Below are positions 11,903-61,913 of a DNA stretch of 64,000 nucleotides, piece by piece. The notes under the pieces were generated by a model. It made no database searches, was not told where the DNA came from, and was given only the letters and a program-made list of their open reading frames with translations. Origin of the DNA: Escherichia coli O157:H7. GTDB lineage: Bacteria; Pseudomonadota; Gammaproteobacteria; Enterobacterales; Enterobacteriaceae. Made by a program: the position numbers and the translations under genes. Location of the stretch: the NCBI RefSeq assembly GCF_013167455.1, contig NZ_CP038328.1. One strand, written 5' to 3'. Position 1 is the first letter of the stretch, and each line of letters begins with the position of its first letter.

Positions 11903-11995
11903 TTGCTGGATGCGGCGCAAACGCTTTATCCGGCCTTGCGGTCACCAACTGTAGGTCGGATAAGACGCGTTAGCGTCGCATCCGACACCGCTGCA
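11903..11995. repeat. REP/BIME palindromic units
   Basis: gatgcggcgcaaacgctttatccggcc ... ggtcggataagacgcgttagcgtcgcatccgaca, a typical REP inverted pair. Confidence 0.7.
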
Positions 11996-12062
11996 CAGAT
12001 CAAAACGAAAGAAAAAGAAAGGCCTTACGGGGGAAGTGAAGGCCCAATAATGGAGCAAACCA

Positions 12063-13196
12063 TCAAAACGAAGCTAATTGACCCTGAATCCAGATTTGTT
12101 GCACATGCAGCCCGCTATCCAGCGCAACGACGCTGGCGCGTTTGCCCGGTTTAAGCGATCCCAGAACACCATCAACACCCAGCATTCGCGCCGGATGCAG
12201 CGACGCCATATGAATGGCTTCCGCAGGCGTTACGCCCGTCAACTCGACCATGTTGCGCACTGCCGCATCAACAGACAGCGTACTGCCCGCCAGCCCACCG
12301 GACGCGGTACGGACAACGCCACCGTGCATCTGCACTTCTTCGCCACATAACGTATAGCGACCATCCGGCATCCCGGCTGCCTGCATCGCGTCGGTGATCA
12401 GTACGATTCTCTCTTTCGCACAGCAACAACACAGCGACATTGCCGCCGGATGCACATGATGACCATCGGCTATCAGTTCCAGCCAGGCGCGCTTGTCCGT
12501 TAATCCCGCGCCAACCATTCCCGGTTCGCGGTGATGTAAACCTGTCATCCCGTTATAGCAATGCACCAGGCCGTCGGCACCAGCATCAAACGCGGCGCGA
12601 GTTTGTTGCCAGGTCGCCGCGCTATGCCCCAGCATCACTCGTACATTTTGCTGTTTAAGATGGCGGATGGCCTGCAATGCCCCCTCTTTTTCCGGTGCCA
12701 GCGCTACCACGCGTAAGGTGTGCTGAGAAACGGCAATCAATTGATCCAGCTCGGCAATTTCAAGCTCGCGAAACAACTCCGGCGGATGCGCGCCTTTATT
12801 CTGCGGCGTGAAGTACGGTCCTTCGAGATAACTCCCCAGCACTTGCGCACCAGGTCCGCCGCGTTGGCAACGTTGAGCAATACGTTTCAGCGCCGCATGA
12901 ATGGTACTAAGCGGCGCGGTTACGGTAGTCGGCAACCAACTGCCGACACCTTCGCGTGCCTTGTGCATTGCCAGCTTGTCGAGTACATCCGGCGCGTCAT
13001 CCATTACATCAACGCCCGCACCACCGTGTACATGGGTGTCGATGTAAGCGGGGCAGAGCAGTTCCGCATCGCGTTCAGTCACGCTCACTGGAATCGGTTC
13101 GATTGCTGCGATGACACCGTCAGCAATACGCAACTGATGGTCATCGAGCCATCCCTCTTCAGTCAGCAGCCTTCTGGCGCGCAGAACGTGTGTCAT
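12063..13196 (-). CDS. agaA: N-acetylgalactosamine-6-phosphate deacetylase, full length (377 aa)
   Basis: ORF MTHVLRARRLLTEEGWLDDHQL...; NagA-family metal-binding motifs; intact, unlike the truncated K-12 allele. Confidence 0.9.
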   Translation of the reverse strand: MTHVLRARRLLTEEGWLDDHQLRIADGVIAAIEPIPVSVTERDAELLCPAYIDTHVHGGAGVDVMDDAPDVLDKLAMHKAREGVGSWLPTTVTAPLSTIHAALKRIAQRCQRGGPGAQVLGSYLEGPYFTPQNKGAHPPELFRELEIAELDQLIAVSQHTLRVVALAPEKEGALQAIRHLKQQNVRVMLGHSAATWQQTRAAFDAGADGLVHCYNGMTGLHHREPGMVGAGLTDKRAWLELIADGHHVHPAAMSLCCCCAKERIVLITDAMQAAGMPDGRYTLCGEEVQMHGGVVRTASGGLAGSTLSVDAAVRNMVELTGVTPAEAIHMASLHPARMLGVDGVLGSLKPGKRASVVALDSGLHVQQIWIQGQLASF

Positions 13197-40264: not shown

Positions 40265-40385
40265 GGTTTTGGGTATCGTGCCGGATGCGATGCTGGCGCA
40301 TCTTATCCGGCCTACGGGTTGTTTAATTCGTTAATGTTGTTGGATTTTGTAGGCCGGATAAGGCGTTTTCGCCGCATCCGGCAAC
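40265..40385. repeat. REP/BIME palindromic units
   Basis: gccggatgcgatgctggcgcatcttatccggcctac ... gtaggccggataaggcgttttcgccgcatccggca. Confidence 0.75.
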
Positions 40386-52281: not shown

Positions 52282-53769
52282 ATGCAATACATCAAGATCC
52301 ATGCGCTGGATAACGTCGCGGTCGCTTTAGCGGATTTGGCTGAAGGCACAGAAGTCAGTGTCGATAACCAAACTGTTAGGCTGCGCCAGGATGTTGCTCG
52401 TGGACATAAATTTGCGTTAACGAATATCGCAAAAGGGGCCAACGTCATCAAATATGGCCTGCCGATTGGTTATGCATTGGCGGATATTGCGGCGGGGGAA
52501 CACGTTCACGCCCACAATACGCGCACGAATCTGAGCGATCTGGATCAGTATCGCTATCAACCTGATTTTCAGGATCTGCCTGCGCAAGCGGCAGATCGTG
52601 AAGTGCAGATCTATCGTCGCGCTAACGGCGATGTCGGGGTGCGTAACGAGCTGTGGATCCTGCCAACCGTGGGCTGTGTCAACGGCATCGCGCGGCAGAT
52701 CCAGAACCGTTTTCTGAAAGAGACCAACAACGCTGAAGGTACCGACGGCGTGTTCCTCTTCAGCCACACCTACGGCTGCTCACAGCTGGGCGACGATCAC
52801 ATTAATACCCGCACCATGCTGCAAAACATGGTGCGCCACCCGAACGCAGGCGCAGTGCTGGTGATTGGTCTGGGCTGTGAAAACAACCAGGTTGCCGCAT
52901 TCCGTGAAACGCTGGGCGATATCGATCCTGAACGCGTTCATTTCATGATCTGCCAACAGCAGGATGATGAGATCGAAGCCGGAATCGAGCATTTGCATCA
53001 GCTGTATAACGTGATGCGCAACGATAAACGCGAGCCAGGCAAACTCAGCGAACTGAAGTTTGGTCTGGAGTGCGGTGGTTCTGACGGTCTTTCTGGTATT
53101 ACTGCTAACCCGATGCTGGGGCGTTTCTCTGACTACGTGATTGCTAACGGCGGTACTACCGTACTGACCGAAGTGCCGGAGATGTTTGGCGCAGAGCAGT
53201 TGCTGATGGACCATTGCCGCGACGAAGCAACGTTTGAAAAACTGGTCACCATGGTCAACGACTTCAAACAGTACTTTATTGCCCATGACCAGCCGATCTA
53301 TGAAAACCCATCGCCGGGGAACAAAGCGGGCGGTATCACCACGCTGGAAGATAAATCCCTTGGCTGTACCCAGAAAGCGGGTTCCAGCGTCGTGGTTGAC
53401 GTGCTGCGTTACGGCGAGCGTCTGAAAACGCCGGGGCTGAACTTGTTAAGTGCGCCGGGTAACGATGCCGTAGCGACCAGCGCCCTGGCGGGTGCGGGCT
53501 GCCATATGGTGCTGTTCAGTACTGGTCGTGGCACGCCATACGGCGGCTTTGTACCGACGGTGAAAATCGCTACCAACAGTGAACTGGCGGCGAAGAAAAA
53601 ACACTGGATCGACTTTGACGCGGGTCAGCTGATCCACGGTAAAGCGATGCCGCAGTTGCTGGAAGAATTTATCGATACCATCGTTGAGTTTGCCAACGGT
53701 AAACAAACCTGCAACGAGCGTAACGACTTCCGCGAACTGGCGATCTTCAAAAGCGGCGTAACGCTATAA
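52282..53769 (+). CDS. uxaA: Altronate dehydratase
   Basis: 495-aa ORF MQYIKIHALDNVAVALADLAEGTEVSVDNQ...; paralog of GarD seen in this same window. Confidence 0.95.
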   Translation: MQYIKIHALDNVAVALADLAEGTEVSVDNQTVRLRQDVARGHKFALTNIAKGANVIKYGLPIGYALADIAAGEHVHAHNTRTNLSDLDQYRYQPDFQDLPAQAADREVQIYRRANGDVGVRNELWILPTVGCVNGIARQIQNRFLKETNNAEGTDGVFLFSHTYGCSQLGDDHINTRTMLQNMVRHPNAGAVLVIGLGCENNQVAAFRETLGDIDPERVHFMICQQQDDEIEAGIEHLHQLYNVMRNDKREPGKLSELKFGLECGGSDGLSGITANPMLGRFSDYVIANGGTTVLTEVPEMFGAEQLLMDHCRDEATFEKLVTMVNDFKQYFIAHDQPIYENPSPGNKAGGITTLEDKSLGCTQKAGSSVVVDVLRYGERLKTPGLNLLSAPGNDAVATSALAGAGCHMVLFSTGRGTPYGGFVPTVKIATNSELAAKKKHWIDFDAGQLIHGKAMPQLLEEFIDTIVEFANGKQTCNERNDFRELAIFKSGVTL

Positions 53770-53791
53770 AGTCGAAATGAGTTGTTAATAA

Positions 53792-53828
53792 AAAACGGCG
53801 TTTCATAATGTGAAGCGCCGTTTGCTTT
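53792..53828 (+). terminator. Intrinsic terminator after uxaA
   Basis: aaaaaacggcgtttcataatgtgaagcgccgttt gctttt. Confidence 0.7.
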
Positions 53829-53851
53829 TCCATACCTGATAAGGATTTATC

Positions 53852-54403
53852 ATGACCGCGTATTGGCTGGCCCAGGGCGTGGGTGTCATCGCCTTTCTGA
53901 TTGGTATCACAACATTTTTCAATCGTGACGAACGTCGCTTCAAAAAGCAGCTTTCGGTCTATAGCGCCGTTATTGGCGTACATTTTTTTCTTCTGGGCAC
54001 CTATCCCGCTGGTGCCAGTGCCATCCTTAATGCCATTCGTACATTGATTACCTTACGCACGCGCAGCTTATGGGTAATGGCGATTTTTATTGTGCTGACT
54101 GGCGGAATTGGCCTCGCGAAGTTCCATCATCCTATCGAACTATTGCCGGTTATCGGTACGATTGTCAGTACCTGGGCGCTGTTCCGCTGTAAAGGGCTCA
54201 CCATGCGCTGCGTGATGTGGTTTTCAACGTGTTGCTGGGTGATTCACAACTTCTGGGCGGGGTCGATAGGCGGCACGATGATTGAGGGTAGTTTTCTGCT
54301 TATGAATGGCCTGAATATCATTCGTTTCTGGCGGATGCAGAAAAGGGGAATTGATCCGTTTAAAGTAGAGAAAACCCCTCCCGCCATAGACGAAAGGGGT
54401 TAA
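53852..54403 (+). CDS. ygjV: Inner-membrane protein YgjV
   Basis: 183-aa hydrophobic ORF MTAYWLAQGVGVIAFLIGITTFFNRDERRFKK... Confidence 0.8.
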   Translation: MTAYWLAQGVGVIAFLIGITTFFNRDERRFKKQLSVYSAVIGVHFFLLGTYPAGASAILNAIRTLITLRTRSLWVMAIFIVLTGGIGLAKFHHPIELLPVIGTIVSTWALFRCKGLTMRCVMWFSTCCWVIHNFWAGSIGGTMIEGSFLLMNGLNIIRFWRMQKRGIDPFKVEKTPPAIDERG

Positions 54404-54407
54404 ACAA

Positions 54408-55652
54408 TTAATTACGCAGGGCGCTATTTGCCAGACGATCGTCTTCCGCCTGGCAAGCTGCCGCAGTGAACAGCACGTCAGTTGAAGAGTTCAGAGCGGT
54501 TTCGCAAGAGTCCTGCAATACGCCGATAATAAAGCCGACGGCAACCACCTGCATGGCGATATCGTTCGAAATACCGAACATATTACAGGCCAGTGGGATC
54601 AGCAGCAAAGAACCCCCCGCCACGCCGGATGCGCCACAGGCACACAGAGAAGCCACTACGCTCAACAGCAGCGCTGTGGGCAGATCGACCGGAATACCCA
54701 GCGTATTAACCGCAGCCAGCGTCAACACGGTAATGGTGATTGCTGCGCCCGCCATATTGATGGTGGCTCCCAGCGGAATAGAAACGGAATAGGTATCGCG
54801 ATCCAGATTCAGCTTTTCACACAGTGCCATATTCACCGGAATGTTCGCCGCAGAGCTGCGGGTGAAGAAGGCATACACGCCGCTTTCGCGCAGGCACAGC
54901 AGCACCAGCGGGAACGGGTTACGACGAATTTTCCACCACACCAGCAATGGGTTAACCACCAGCGCCACCAGTAACATACAGCCAACCAGCACGACCAGCA
55001 GTTGCGCGTAGCCCCACAGTGTGGAGAAACCGGTGGTTGCCAGGGTAGAAGAAACCAGACCAAAAATACCAATCGGTGCGAAGCGAATGACCAGTTTCAC
55101 CATAAAGGTGACGGCATTCGACATATCGTTGACCAGGTTTTTGGTGGTCTCGTTACCGTGACGCAGTGCGAAACCGAGGCCAATTGCCCACACCAGGATC
55201 CCGATGTAGTTACCTTTCAGCAGCGCGTCGATGGGGTTGGAAACCATGCTCATTACCAGCCCGCGCATCACTTCTACAATGCCTGACGGTGGCGAAATAT
55301 CACCCGCGCTACTGGATAAGTGCAGGGTAGAAGGGAAGGCGAAGCTGAAAACGACTGCGGCCAGAGCAGCAGAGAAGGTACCCAGCAGATAGAGGAACAA
55401 AATAGGGCGGATATTGGTTTTCTGCCCGTGCTGGTGGTTAGCAATAGATGCCATCACCAGCATCAACACCAGGATGGGGGCAACGGCTTTCAGTGCGCCG
55501 ACGAACAAAGTACCTAACAGACCAACAGCTTCCGCCGCGGGTTTTGAGATCCATGCCAGAAGAATCCCCAGAACAAGGCCGACCAGGATTTGTTTTACCA
55601 GGCTGCCATGAGCCAGACGCCGGAATAGCCCCGGTGAACGTTGCGTAGTCAT
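54408..55652 (-). CDS. sstT: Na+-coupled serine/threonine transporter
   Basis: 414-aa polytopic ORF, DAACS family; convergent with ygjV with a 4-bp gap. Confidence 0.9.
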
Positions 55653-55878
55653 TTTTCGATCCTTTCATTGTGTTGTCGCACATCCCTGGTGCGTTCTGTC
55701 GACGCATCTTTCAGGATGTAACAAAGTGTTTGCAAGGTCGAGTATAAGGAAAGTTACAGCTTCGGGAAGCGAAAAATGCTGGATTTTAAAGAGAGGTCAT
55801 ATTTTGCAACTTAATGGTTACATTTATTTGACATAAAAATAAAGCCAACGTGCGGCTTCCAGACTGAGGACTACGTCA

Positions 55879-55900
55879 AAAAAGGACTCGGTCAGTCCCC
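55879..55900 (-). terminator. Candidate intrinsic terminator at the end of the alx 3' UTR
   Basis: Minus strand: gggactg-accga-gtcc followed by tttttt. Confidence 0.5.
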
Positions 55901-56000
55901 TCGCCCCGTTTGGGGAGAGGGTTAGGGTGAGGGGAACAGGCCAGCATCGGTGCGAAAAATTACCCTCACCCCGACCCTCTCCCTGGAAGGGAGAGGGAGA
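55895..56000. repeat. GC-rich compound palindromic element (GGGAGAGGG / CCCTCTCCC and GGGTGAGGG / CCCTCACCC arms) in the alx 3' region
   Basis: gggagagggttagggtgagggg ... ccctcaccccgaccctctccc form about 19-bp inverted arms separated by about 30 nt; a further gggagagggag copy follows. Confidence 0.6.
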
Positions 56001-56050
56001 AAACGGTGCTCATGTTGATGACAGGGTACACGGCTTAGGCAGATTAAAAA

Positions 56051-57016
56051 TCATCCAACCCGCTGCTTATCATGCCGATAATTCACCCAGGCGTTGATAA
56101 TAAACGTCATCACCAGGATGCCAAACACCACGCCCAGCGAGACGGCGATTGGAATATGGTAGAAGTCGACAATCAGCATCTTGATACCGATAAACACCAG
56201 AATCACCGCCAGGCCATATTTGAGCATCGAGAAACGCTCTGCTACGCCCGCCAGCAGGAAATACATCGCACGCAGGCCGAGGATCGCAAACAGGTTTGAG
56301 GTCAGCACAATGAACGGGTCAGTGGTCACGGCGAAGATAGCCGGAATGCTATCCACGGCAAAAATCACGTCGCTCAATTCCACCAGAATCAGTACCAGCA
56401 TCAGCGGTGTGGCGTACAGCAATCCATTCTTACGCACAAAGAAATGCTCGTTGTCGATGGTGTCGGTCATGCGCAAATGACCGCGTAGCCAGCGCACCAG
56501 CGGCTTGTCGCCAATGCCTGATTCATCTTCATGGGCGAGCGCCATCTTCACGCCGGTAAACAGCAGGAAGGCACCGAAGATATACAGGATCCAGTCGAAC
56601 TGCGAAATCAGCCAGCTGCCAGTGAAGATCATGATGGTACGCAGAACAATCGCCCCGAGCACGCCATACACCAGCACGCGGCGTTGTAATGCCGCCGGAA
56701 CGGAGAAATAGCTGAACAACATCAGCCAGACAAAGACGTTATCGACCGCCAGCGACTTCTCAATCAGATAACCCGTGAGGAAGGCCAGCGCCTGTGGATC
56801 GGCAACGGCGCGACCTTCGGTTTGTACCAGATACCACCAGAAAGCAGCGTTAAACAGTAACGACAGCGTCACCCAGACCAGCGACCAGGCCGCAGCCTGT
56901 TTCATGGTCATGGCATGTGCCCCACGACGTCCCTGCAACAACAGGTCGATAGCCAGCATAATGGCGACAACAACAGCGAATCCGCCCCATAGCAACGGCG
57001 TGCCGACAGTATTCAT
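56051..57016 (-). CDS. alx: TerC-family inner-membrane protein Alx (putative Mn2+ exporter, alkaline-induced)
   Basis: 321-aa [39 protein letters not shown]... Confidence 0.9.
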
Positions 57017-57029
57017 AGAAGTTCCTTAC

Positions 57030-57265
57030 ACATAAAAAAAACGGCCAACGTCGGAAGACGTCAGCCGCTGCTTTTTATGCATAGACCTCGCCTTCCGGCA
57101 AGGTCTCACTTACAACAAAAAAGGAATACGTCTGCGTATTCCTTTCGGGTTGCCCGGTGACCGGATGTGGTTTTTCACACATCGTAATGACGATCGACCG
57201 GCAATGAAGTTACTCCCCTTTGCAGGTAACAAAGTATGACAGACCATTCAGTCAGTCAATGGTCT
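57030..57265 (-). ncRNA. sraF: alx 5' leader: yybP-ykoY-type (Mn2+ / pH-responsive) riboswitch element (SraF) with attenuator hairpins
   Basis: Minus strand contains aaaggggagtaacttcattgccggtcgatcgtcattacg, then hairpin aggaatacgcagacgtattcc + U6, then a second hairpin gacgtcttccgacgt + U8 about 20 nt before the alx ATG. Confidence 0.6.
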
Positions 57266-57299
57266 GTTACATACCTTTTACACTGTTTTACTTTGGCAA

Positions 57300-58286
57300 T
57301 TATAGTTTTACGCTATCTGCCGGAAAAATCACCCCAGTCTGGCGGCGGATCTCGGTCAGCAGTTTGGCTGTGATGCGACTGACCGCCAGCCCTGGATGAT
57401 CCACCAGATGCTCATCCACCAGGGTAGCGAACAGCTCTGCTTCGTAGAGCATGGTATTAATATGCTGCGGCTGGGTGAGATCCTGCATCTGGCTGCCACG
57501 CGGCACGAAGCACACTTTCTGGCATTCAGACAGTTTTTCAATCACCAGCGATCCCGCTTCGCCCTGAATCTCGCTTGCCAGGACAGAATCGCTGACCTTT
57601 GAGTGCTGCAAGGTGACGCTGAAATCACCGTAATCCATCACCACCACGCCGTGGGCATCTACACCACTTGCCAGTAAACTGGCGGTTGCCTGCACGCTTT
57701 TCGGCTCACCAAATAACGCTACCGCCGACGCCAGGCAGTAAAAGCCGATATCCATAATTGAACCGTTAGAGAATGCCGGATTAAAGGTGTTGGGATTCTC
57801 ACCGTCCAGGTAACGTTGATACCGCGAGGAATACTGGCAATAGTTGAAAAAAACTTTCCGCAGTTTGCCGACTTTCGGCAGCGCCTGGCGTAACAGATGA
57901 AAGTTAGGCAGGCTGGCCGTTTTAAATGCCTCAAACAGCACCACCTGATTTTCACGCGCGCAGGCAATGGCTGCATCCACTTCCGCCAGATTCGACGCCA
58001 GTGGTTTCTCACAAATCACATGAATTTTGTGGCTCAGGAAAAGTTGCGTCTGGGAAAAATGCAGGGCGTTCGGGCTGGCAATATACACCGCGTCGATAGC
58101 GTCACTTTCCGCCATTGCTTCCAGCGAAGTAAACAGATGCTCGACAGAAAACTCATTGGCGAAGTGCTGGGCCTGTTCAAGGCTGCGGGAATAAACGGCG
58201 GTTAACTTATATTTACCGCTTTCATGTGCGGCCTCCACGAACTGGTGAGTTATCCAGTTCGTACCAATCACGGCGAAACGTATCAT
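57300..58286 (-). CDS. ygjR: Gfo/Idh/MocA-family NAD(P)-dependent oxidoreductase
   Basis: MIRFAVIGTNWITHQFVEAAHESGKYKLTAVYSRSLEQAQHFANEF... (328 aa). Confidence 0.85.
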   Translation of the reverse strand: MIRFAVIGTNWITHQFVEAAHESGKYKLTAVYSRSLEQAQHFANEFSVEHLFTSLEAMAESDAIDAVYIASPNALHFSQTQLFLSHKIHVICEKPLASNLAEVDAAIACARENQVVLFEAFKTASLPNFHLLRQALPKVGKLRKVFFNYCQYSSRYQRYLDGENPNTFNPAFSNGSIMDIGFYCLASAVALFGEPKSVQATASLLASGVDAHGVVVMDYGDFSVTLQHSKVSDSVLASEIQGEAGSLVIEKLSECQKVCFVPRGSQMQDLTQPQHINTMLYEAELFATLVDEHLVDHPGLAVSRITAKLLTEIRRQTGVIFPADSVKL

Positions 58287-58364
58287 AACGCGTGGATACT
58301 CCATAAAGGGATTCTGTCGTCAATGTAGCACGCCTTTTTCATCTTCGACGTGCGCGGATACGCA

Positions 58365-59057
58365 TTATTTCTGCGCCGGACAACCATGCTCACTAAACGG
58401 ACCAATAATGACCGACGGCCCGAGATATTTTGGCTGACGATTGAAGATTTTCGCGTCAATCACCGCGCTGACTCTGGCGAGTTTCTCTCGCAGACGGACA
58501 ATCTTTCCGCGTCCTTTTTCCAGGTCTGGTGCGTTAAACCCGATAGCATCGATGCCGTATTGTTTTGCCAGCCAGATGGCGCGTTGGTTATGAAATTCCT
58601 GCGAGATAATGGTGATATGGTTCTCCCCAAACACTTTATTGGCACGCACCACTGAATCAAGCGTTGAGAATCCGGCATAGTCACAGAAGATCACTTTTGC
58701 CGGTACGCCCTTTGCGATCAAAGCCTGCTGCATGCCTGACGCTTCATCGTAATTTTTACGTCCGTTATCGCCACTGACCAGCAGCCATTTCACTTTTCCG
58801 GCGTGGTACAACTCTGCTGCGGTATCAATACGTCGGGTAAAGTAGCGATTACCCGGCCTGGCCCCCAGCAATAAGCCCACGTTACGCGCCGGAACGACGT
58901 TGACGTCGCTCCAGGTCAGCTGTTTGCTGGCGTTGACCATTACGCGATCGGCGATAAAAATGGTCGCTCCTGCCACAAGTAACAGTAAGCAGGCAATCTT
59001 TAGAGTCCGGCGAGAAAAACAAATACGGAGAAGAAGGCGGGCAAATGCGCGCAGCAT
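58365..59057 (-). CDS. ygjQ: DUF218 (SanA/YdcF-like) domain protein with N-terminal membrane anchor
   Basis: 230-aa [42 protein letters not shown]... Confidence 0.8.
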
Positions 59058-60869: not shown

Positions 60870-60965
60870 ACCTGCCAGATAAGGCGTAAACGCCTTATCT
60901 GGCATACGTTTAGCACATTACCCCCAGGTCGGATAAGATGCGGCAAGCGTCGCATCCGGCAATGT
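60870..60965. repeat. REP/BIME palindromic units
   Basis: ctgccagataaggcgtaaacgccttatctggcat ... ggtcggataagatgcggcaagcgtcgcatccggca. Confidence 0.75.
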
Positions 60966-61869: not shown

Positions 61870-61913
61870 CGCGACGTGCCGGATGCGTTGCATCCGGCAC
61901 TTCAATGCACGAT

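Follow-up and report, generated by a model that had tools for sequence, protein, structure and literature searches.

The 398-bp spacer between alx and sstT in Escherichia coli O157:H7 carries a long GC-rich palindrome, which raises the question of whether this element acts in the alx mRNA, binds a protein, or simply belongs to a dispersed repeat family. All of these had been proposed in a sequence-only reading of the window analyzed here (a 64,000-nt stretch of contig NZ_CP038328.1, which runs in reverse to K-12). Within the window, alx is encoded by the ORF at 56051..57016 on the (−) strand, with its TGA stop codon at 56053-56051, and sstT by 54408..55652 on the same strand; the spacer between them has the same length in K-12. 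Across the whole element, the window does not differ from K-12, and the 211 bases around the palindrome showed 100% identity with E. coli strain PV15-279. A 56-aa ORF at 55927..56097 on the (+) strand was dismissed, since it overlaps the repeat and is antisense to the 3′ end of alx.

We found that the alx-sstT palindrome is, with near certainty, a BoxC pair (also PIT, TMECO or HPGQ), i.e., one type B and one type A unit in inverted orientation. The element, its family, the pairing rule and the link to local deletions have all been published previously, and as a discovery this real, ordinary and known repeat carries little weight. What we add here is the description of the paired form as a ~127-bp cassette with conserved flanks and spacer, together with the frequencies of the alx-sstT alleles among 5426 complete E. 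coli genomes.

The sequences around the spacer have features of their own. Directly before the sstT start (55653-55700, (−) strand), the sstT 5′ UTR contains the CA-rich stretch GCGACAACACAATGAAAGG, which is conserved in Citrobacter and which we take to be the target region of the GcvB sRNA. The alx leader (57017-57299, (−) strand) gave no match to the yybP-ykoY (Mn) riboswitch at E ≤ 10 in an Rfam scan of 56950-57350; this leader (PRE/SraF) is usually assigned to that family. Published Term-seq data place a strong 3′ end in the alx leader, 98 nt upstream of alx (K-12 3,238,482), and another in the sstT 5′ UTR, 21 nt upstream of sstT (K-12 3,239,923) (Adams et al. 2021).

Structure and family of the palindrome

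The sequence between the alx stop codon and sstT proved to be the GC-rich compound palindrome that had been described. Three copies of the block CCCTCTCCC are present in the 64-kb window, every one of them inside 55913-55997 (85 bp; 0.18 expected), and the 22-mer GGGAGAGGGTTAGGGTGAGGGG has two matches there at ≤3 mismatches (0.00 expected). The inverted repeat, originally given as about 19 bp, is real; its 24-nt arms (55913-55936 and 55960-55983) show 88% complementarity, and the repeat search also returned a perfect 10-nt hairpin (55975-55984/55988-55997). The inverted-repeat structure at 55898-55997 far exceeds chance. Folding of the alx-sense RNA (55870-56050) gave −73.1 kcal/mol (z = −3.97 versus shuffles), which confirms that the 3′ region is more stable as RNA than its shuffled versions; the fold of the DNA strand of the same region had a z-score of −5.56 versus shuffles.

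Specifically, positions 55898-55997 consist of two inverted units of 36-37 nt, each ordered as C-block, loop, G-block, loop and G-block, which converge on a 27-nt spacer. Unit B (55962..55997, (−) strand) reads CCCTCTCCC-TTCCA-GGGAGAGGG-TCG-GGGTGAGGG-T, and unit A (55898..55934, (+) strand) reads CCCTCGCCCC-GTTT-GGGGAGAGGG-TTA-GGGTGAGGGG. BoxC units are defined as stretches of 34-37 nt with this block order (CCCTC[T/G]CCC..GGGAGAGGG..GGGTGAGGG), and a regex scan with block parsing recovered both units as such. The pair also follows the pairing rule of the family, with the loop TTA in unit A, the loop TCG in unit B and the two units on opposite strands; one type A (TTA) and one type B (CCG/TCG) unit on opposite strands were likewise present in all K-12 pairs (5/5).

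Both units are found letter for letter in Table 1 of Holder et al. 2015 as TMECO no. 12 (K-12 3,239,599-3,239,634, type B) and no. 13 (3,239,698-3,239,662, type A, one mismatch) (PMC4666352), and Kaplan et al. 2016 list the two alx-sstT sites as HPGQ 34 and 35 (PMC5100583). As recounted by Holder et al., the motif was known as "BoxC" in the 1990s and as the "PIT elements" of Hoyne and Maher (PMC4666352). The K-12 genome as originally deposited in GenBank had 33 BoxC annotations (51-59 bp each), and the current RefSeq K-12 record has no feature at the alx-sstT repeat site. The proposal of an under-annotated dispersed family was, therefore, correct as to dispersal and incorrect as to novelty, since the family has been described as BoxC and later as PIT, TMECO and HPGQ; "under-annotated" is true only of the current RefSeq K-12 record, and the orthologous copies appear in both published sets (PMC4666352 and PMC5100583). 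Because RefSeq no longer marks BoxC, scans based on sequence alone will keep rediscovering it.

The view that the element is not a canonical REP was borne out. REP identity is rejected, as the core GCC(G/T)GATGCG(A/G)CG was absent from 55653-56050 at ≤2 mismatches and occurred 21 times elsewhere in the window. Clusters of the canonical REP/BIME core lie at 11905-12202, 40280-40382, 60948-60960 and 61878-61898, and the window thus holds both families, in different spacers.

Blocks 1 and 2 form 9/9 Watson-Crick pairs in unit B and 8/9 in unit A, where the exception is a G.A mismatch. This mismatch recurred in 12 of the 15 type A units that we examined, and Holder et al. report it in 13/23 K-12 type A units (PMC4666352). 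Such recurrence suggests common descent of the sequence and not selection for perfect pairing. A sequence that is kept more strictly than its pairing, as seen for the G.A mismatch and for the loops (TTA versus CCG/TCG), might also be expected of a protein-binding site, by analogy with the REP/BIME sites for gyrase, IHF and Pol I, with conservation acting on sequence and not on structure. However, the literature on TMECO/PIT elements reports no BoxC-binding protein, and we consider such a site decidedly improbable.

The block pattern would also allow other DNA structures. In both units, block 3 placed antiparallel on block 2 is predicted to give 9/9 allowed purine-motif triads (G*G-C, A*A-T, T*A-T), and the G-rich strands would fit a four-G-tract G-quadruplex pattern. 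A triplex or G-quadruplex on the G-rich strand could, in principle, act as a non-B DNA switch that regulates transcription or replication locally, and the isolated consensus oligonucleotide has been reported to form a stable triplex in vitro by CD and NMR (as summarized in PMC4666352), as well as a hairpin or a G-quadruplex depending on the cation (Kaplan et al., PMC5100583). However, the double-stranded form gave only duplex, and in vivo DMS footprinting detected no protection of the triplex guanines (both as summarized in PMC4666352). Moreover, Holder et al. found no association of BoxC with gene class, distance or operon position (PMC4666352), and the element is missing at alx-sstT in about half of the strains. 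We consider a non-B switch very improbable.

Extent and spread of the paired cassette

The alx-sstT pair was aligned with the paired loci hrpB-mrcB, fepB-entC and ygfF-gcvP of K-12 and the strain-specific yijF-gldA locus of Ec-U14-1. Homology among these loci reached past both units to include the spacer and both outer flanks. Pairwise BLAST against the ygfF-gcvP copy returned a common block at 55880..56009, and homology to that copy delimits a cassette of ~127 bp at 55881..56007, equivalent to about 3,239,589-3,239,715 in K-12, with ~130 bp in the five-locus alignment. On the alx-sense (−) strand, the cassette consists of ACCGTTTTCT, unit B, the spacer, unit A (as its reverse complement) and GACTGACCGAGTCCTTT. 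The inter-unit spacer AACAGGCCAGCATCGGTGCGAAAAATT (55935..55961), delimited from the alignment of the paired loci and the right flanks of type A units, is homologous among the paired loci and has a GCAYCGGTGC mini-palindrome at its center. The T-rich 5′ flank of unit B, ACCGTTTTCT (55998..56007, (−) strand), has GTTTTCT-like counterparts in 6/6 type B units examined, a feature noted for HPG2 by Kaplan et al. (PMC5100583). In comparison, a flank of the form G[TAC]GC[GAT]C..C[AG]GTC preceded all 15 of the 15 type A units examined, often with an A-run ahead of it. Cassette copies at different loci are only 83-87% identical.

This type A flank bears on the transcription terminator that had been reported as a hairpin with a U-run at 55879-55900. 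The hairpin exists: at 55878..55899 on the (−) strand, a 6-bp stem (GGGACU-GACCG-AGUCCU; −8.1 kcal/mol) is followed by U5-6 and is a candidate weak intrinsic terminator of alx, which a simple terminator scan did not flag. It is not, however, an independent landmark, since the flank before type A units is conserved and the stem and first Ts are that flank read on the other strand; the mini-hairpin is thus mostly part of the surroundings of unit A. The flank of the alx copy reads GGACTC, and several other copies read GTGCTC, GCGCTC or similar; the GGACTC variant places a GGACT/AGTCC stem directly before the T-run. Judged by these sequences, the change could reflect chance or local selection for termination. 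A second terminator-like hairpin, GAAGCCGCACGTTGGCTTT followed by ATTTTTATGT, lies outside the cassette at 55831..55859 on the (−) strand (terminator scan flag at 55859..55841), with a fold of −7.5 kcal/mol and z = −0.76.

A genome-wide search showed that the motif is not unique to alx-sstT, with 11 places in the matching O157:H7 genome. A 145-bp query had matches in 5425 of the 5426 complete E. coli genomes, at 1-30 places in each (median, 17). Lineages differ sharply in this number: EC958 and APEC O2:K1:H7 E18055 have only 2-4 places, versus the median of 17 and the maximum of 30. All K-12 copies examined were intergenic. Only 34 of the 83,271 places in the E. coli genomes were on plasmids, and matches were present in 464 of the 72,556 plasmid records of PLSDB, where they ranged over Klebsiella, Rhizobium, Sinorhizobium, Azospirillum, Aeromonas and others; several of the matching E. 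coli "plasmid" records are chromosome-sized. Among 50,697 phage records, three had a match, in each case partial. A 50-nt stretch that is 94% identical to a BoxC unit occurs in the Campylobacter phages MG065686.1 (141091-141139) and MG065691.1 (32984-33032), which is unexpected given their AT-rich host.

Allelic variation at alx-sstT and related slots

Three alleles together accounted for 5401 of the 5426 complete E. coli genomes. Specifically, the intact BoxC pair with the alx flank was found in 2580 genomes, a short allele defined by a 76-bp deletion junction in 1162, and an unrelated TRIP1d-type segment in 1659. The intact pair was, therefore, absent from alx-sstT in 52% of E. coli genomes.

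Alignment with strain Z135-5 placed the 76 bp missing from the short allele at 55922..55997 (coordinates of the intact pair, (−) strand). The deletion is bounded by direct copies of CCCTCTCCC at 55997..55989 and 55921..55913, which leaves its limits ambiguous by 9 bp, and the distance between these copies is exactly 76, the length of the deletion. The short allele keeps the type-B flank CCGTTTTCT, joined to the hairpin half of unit A, and this retention argues that a deletion within the pair gave rise to it. A hairpin can still form in the short allele, which also carries a C-to-A change that weakens the mini-hairpin. From the deleted allele and its exact repeat-to-repeat length, we infer that a near-palindrome with internal 9-bp direct repeats would be prone to slipped-strand or hairpin-mediated deletion, which would yield the 76-bp-deleted allele. 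Holder et al. have already described such a deletion outcome (the "palindrome effect") and found sequence variability to be higher around BoxC motifs than at control intergenic sites (PMC4666352).

The TRIP1d-type allele replaces the sequence from the last two alx codons to about 55838 and includes the TRIP1d repeat described by Li et al. 2024. The two spacer haplotypes are deeply diverged, with their boundary inside alx (56051-56058); Alx ends in ..KQRVG where the strain is of K-12/O157 type, and in ..KQRGE in TRIP1d-type strains and E. albertii. Alignments with strains 2012C-4502 and TR01 delimit a hypervariable haplotype segment at 55838..56058, which spans the final two codons of alx and the spacer as far as the conserved region upstream of sstT. 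With its three alleles, the alx-sstT hotspot constitutes a natural allelic series for the effects of repeats on 3′-end formation and gene insulation.

To place these alleles in a wider context, we examined 80 alx loci from other species. The alx-sstT synteny is widespread among them, with spacers that are usually 190-290 bp, and K-12/O157-type flanks were not found beside alx in 80 other Enterobacterales loci. BoxC was missing from the spacer in E. albertii, Escherichia sp. MOD1-EC7003 and the GTDB E. coli representative, all of which had the TRIP1d-type haplotype; in Citrobacter, the spacer held a plain GC hairpin with a T-run. The BoxC pair is therefore not ancestral at alx-sstT. Single BoxC units are located ~30 nt past the alx stop codon in Enterobacter hormaechei, E. 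cloacae, Leclercia and another Enterobacteriaceae genome, in the last of which sstT is absent downstream, while other single units lie just after sstT in Cedecea, Enterobacter sichuanensis and others. Post-gene slots at alx and sstT have thus been occupied repeatedly, and the independent post-alx units of Enterobacter, Leclercia and the other Enterobacteriaceae genome could mean that insertion favors this slot or that selection has kept a role for them after alx.

A similar exchange was evident at yijF-gldA, where the BoxC cassette is present in 631 genomes and a REP/BIME occupies the same slot in K-12 and most others. The BoxC and REP/BIME alleles of this slot share identical outer flanks and have no target-site duplication. 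At alx-sstT itself, the O157:H7 strain TR01 (NZ_CP033605.1) carries the 127-bp cassette (55881..56007) with 100% identity between TRIP1d-type flanks. No other genome of the 5426 had this mosaic allele, which was delimited by comparison with 55640-56090 and could be a true recombinant or the product of misassembly.

Taken together, such observations call for consideration of the 127-bp cassette as a MITE-like, non-autonomous element that inserts after genes, with the two units as its terminal inverted repeats. The discrete limits common to several loci, the variable presence by strain and locus (1 to 30 places per genome), the substitution for a BIME at yijF-gldA, the identical cassette between foreign flanks in TR01 and the independent occupancy past alx in other genera would all be in keeping with insertion. 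However, while the inverted units are present, no target-site duplication was found at the boundaries examined (yijF-gldA and TR01), and yijF-gldA provided no clean empty site, only the replacement of BoxC by BIME or the reverse. The divergence of copies between loci implies that none of them is recent, BoxC is hardly ever seen in phages and is uncommon on true plasmids, and the TR01 allele is a single case with the doubt noted above. In addition, homologous recombination of the flanks explains the polymorphisms equally well, and no connection to mobile elements emerged from the study of Holder et al. (PMC4666352). We therefore consider a MITE-like element unlikely. We give slightly less credence still to the more specific proposal that the paired cassette is transferred or copied whole into slots after genes, in competition with BIME and TRIP1 repeats; TR01 is the only positive hint of such mobility and, if the proposal is true, its allele would be a transfer caught in the act.

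Function and relation to other repeat families

Since the pair lies between the alx stop codon and the first T-run, on the transcribed strand, we considered whether it serves as a functional element of the alx 3′ UTR, i.e., as a terminator and barrier to 3′ exonucleases or as the source of a 3′UTR-derived small RNA. The very stable fold, the −8.1 kcal/mol hairpin followed by a U-run, the alx-specific GGACT flank variant that creates the stem of this hairpin and the recurrence of BoxC units just past alx in other genera would all accord with such a role. However, the roles of stabilizing 3′ structure and sRNA source, both raised by the sequence-only reading, found no backing in the available data. 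The Rfam scan of 53000-58500 returned nothing relevant; its sole match, to mir-3151 (27.3 bits against a gathering score of 83 bits, E = 0.18), is due to chance. No 3′ end at K-12 3,2395xx-3,2398xx is among those listed from Term-seq by Adams et al. 2021, although little weight attaches to this absence, given the poor expression of alx in the standard media used there and the possible incompleteness of the tables covered. BoxC/PIT elements had neither promoter nor terminator activity in published assays and no effect on RNA polymerase or conjugation (as summarized in PMC4666352). Furthermore, about half of E. coli genomes do without the intact pair, and in the short allele the mini-hairpin is weakened by the C-to-A change.

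The genomic placement of the family was also assessed for signs of a role at 3′ ends. According to our tally of the table of Kaplan et al., BoxC loci comprise 10 tandem, 7 convergent and 2 divergent gene contexts, such that 17 of 19 loci adjoin at least one gene 3′ end and the two divergent loci do not; we do not find this placement convincing as a bias. Among the informative tandem pairs, type A units were oriented with the upstream gene in six cases and against it in three, and this bias is not convincing either. Overall, a dedicated RNA element in the alx 3′ UTR is, in our judgment, about as improbable as a MITE-like origin.

The account that we favor, and hold to be very probable, is that of a known, passively inherited and recombination-prone BoxC cassette with incidental RNA hairpin effects. 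The slots that it occupies after genes would be of a type also open to REP/BIME and TRIP1 repeats. When alx is transcribed, the pair would fold as an RNA helix of ~21 bp just before the weak hairpin and U-run and, by analogy with REP elements, this helix may incidentally help 3′-end formation or slow 3′ exonucleases. We also lean, less firmly and by an argument from absence, towards the view that the pair has no locus-specific function for alx or sstT.

REP/BIME and BoxC are alike as GC-rich palindromic intergenic repeats that lie mostly by gene 3′ ends, are transcribed as hairpins and are polymorphic among strains, and they are able to hold the same slot, as at yijF-gldA. REPs have a known mobilizing RAYT transposase and known binding proteins; in contrast, BoxC is not known to have a mobilizing transposase or a binding protein. 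ERIC/IRU elements resemble the BoxC cassette as imperfect palindromes of ~127 bp that are intergenic, transcribed and variably present among strains, but the cassette sequence is presumably unrelated to the ERIC consensus. The original K-12 record likewise treats IRU as a family separate from BoxC.

TRIP1d and the BoxC pair are alternative occupants of the alx-sstT slot; our count of 1659 TRIP1d-type alleles among 5426 genomes compares with 1565 of 6725 genomes with TRIP1d at this slot in Li et al. 2024. TRIP1 repeats measure 146-273 bp, occur in up to five copies per genome and are reported mediators of large chromosomal rearrangements (Li et al. 2024), and their sequences are unrelated to BoxC. 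By comparison, the alx-sstT pair matches the BoxC/PIT/TMECO/HPGQ family in its three-block sequence, its inverted pairing of A and B units, its intergenic location and its dispersal through the genome, with no essential difference between the two.
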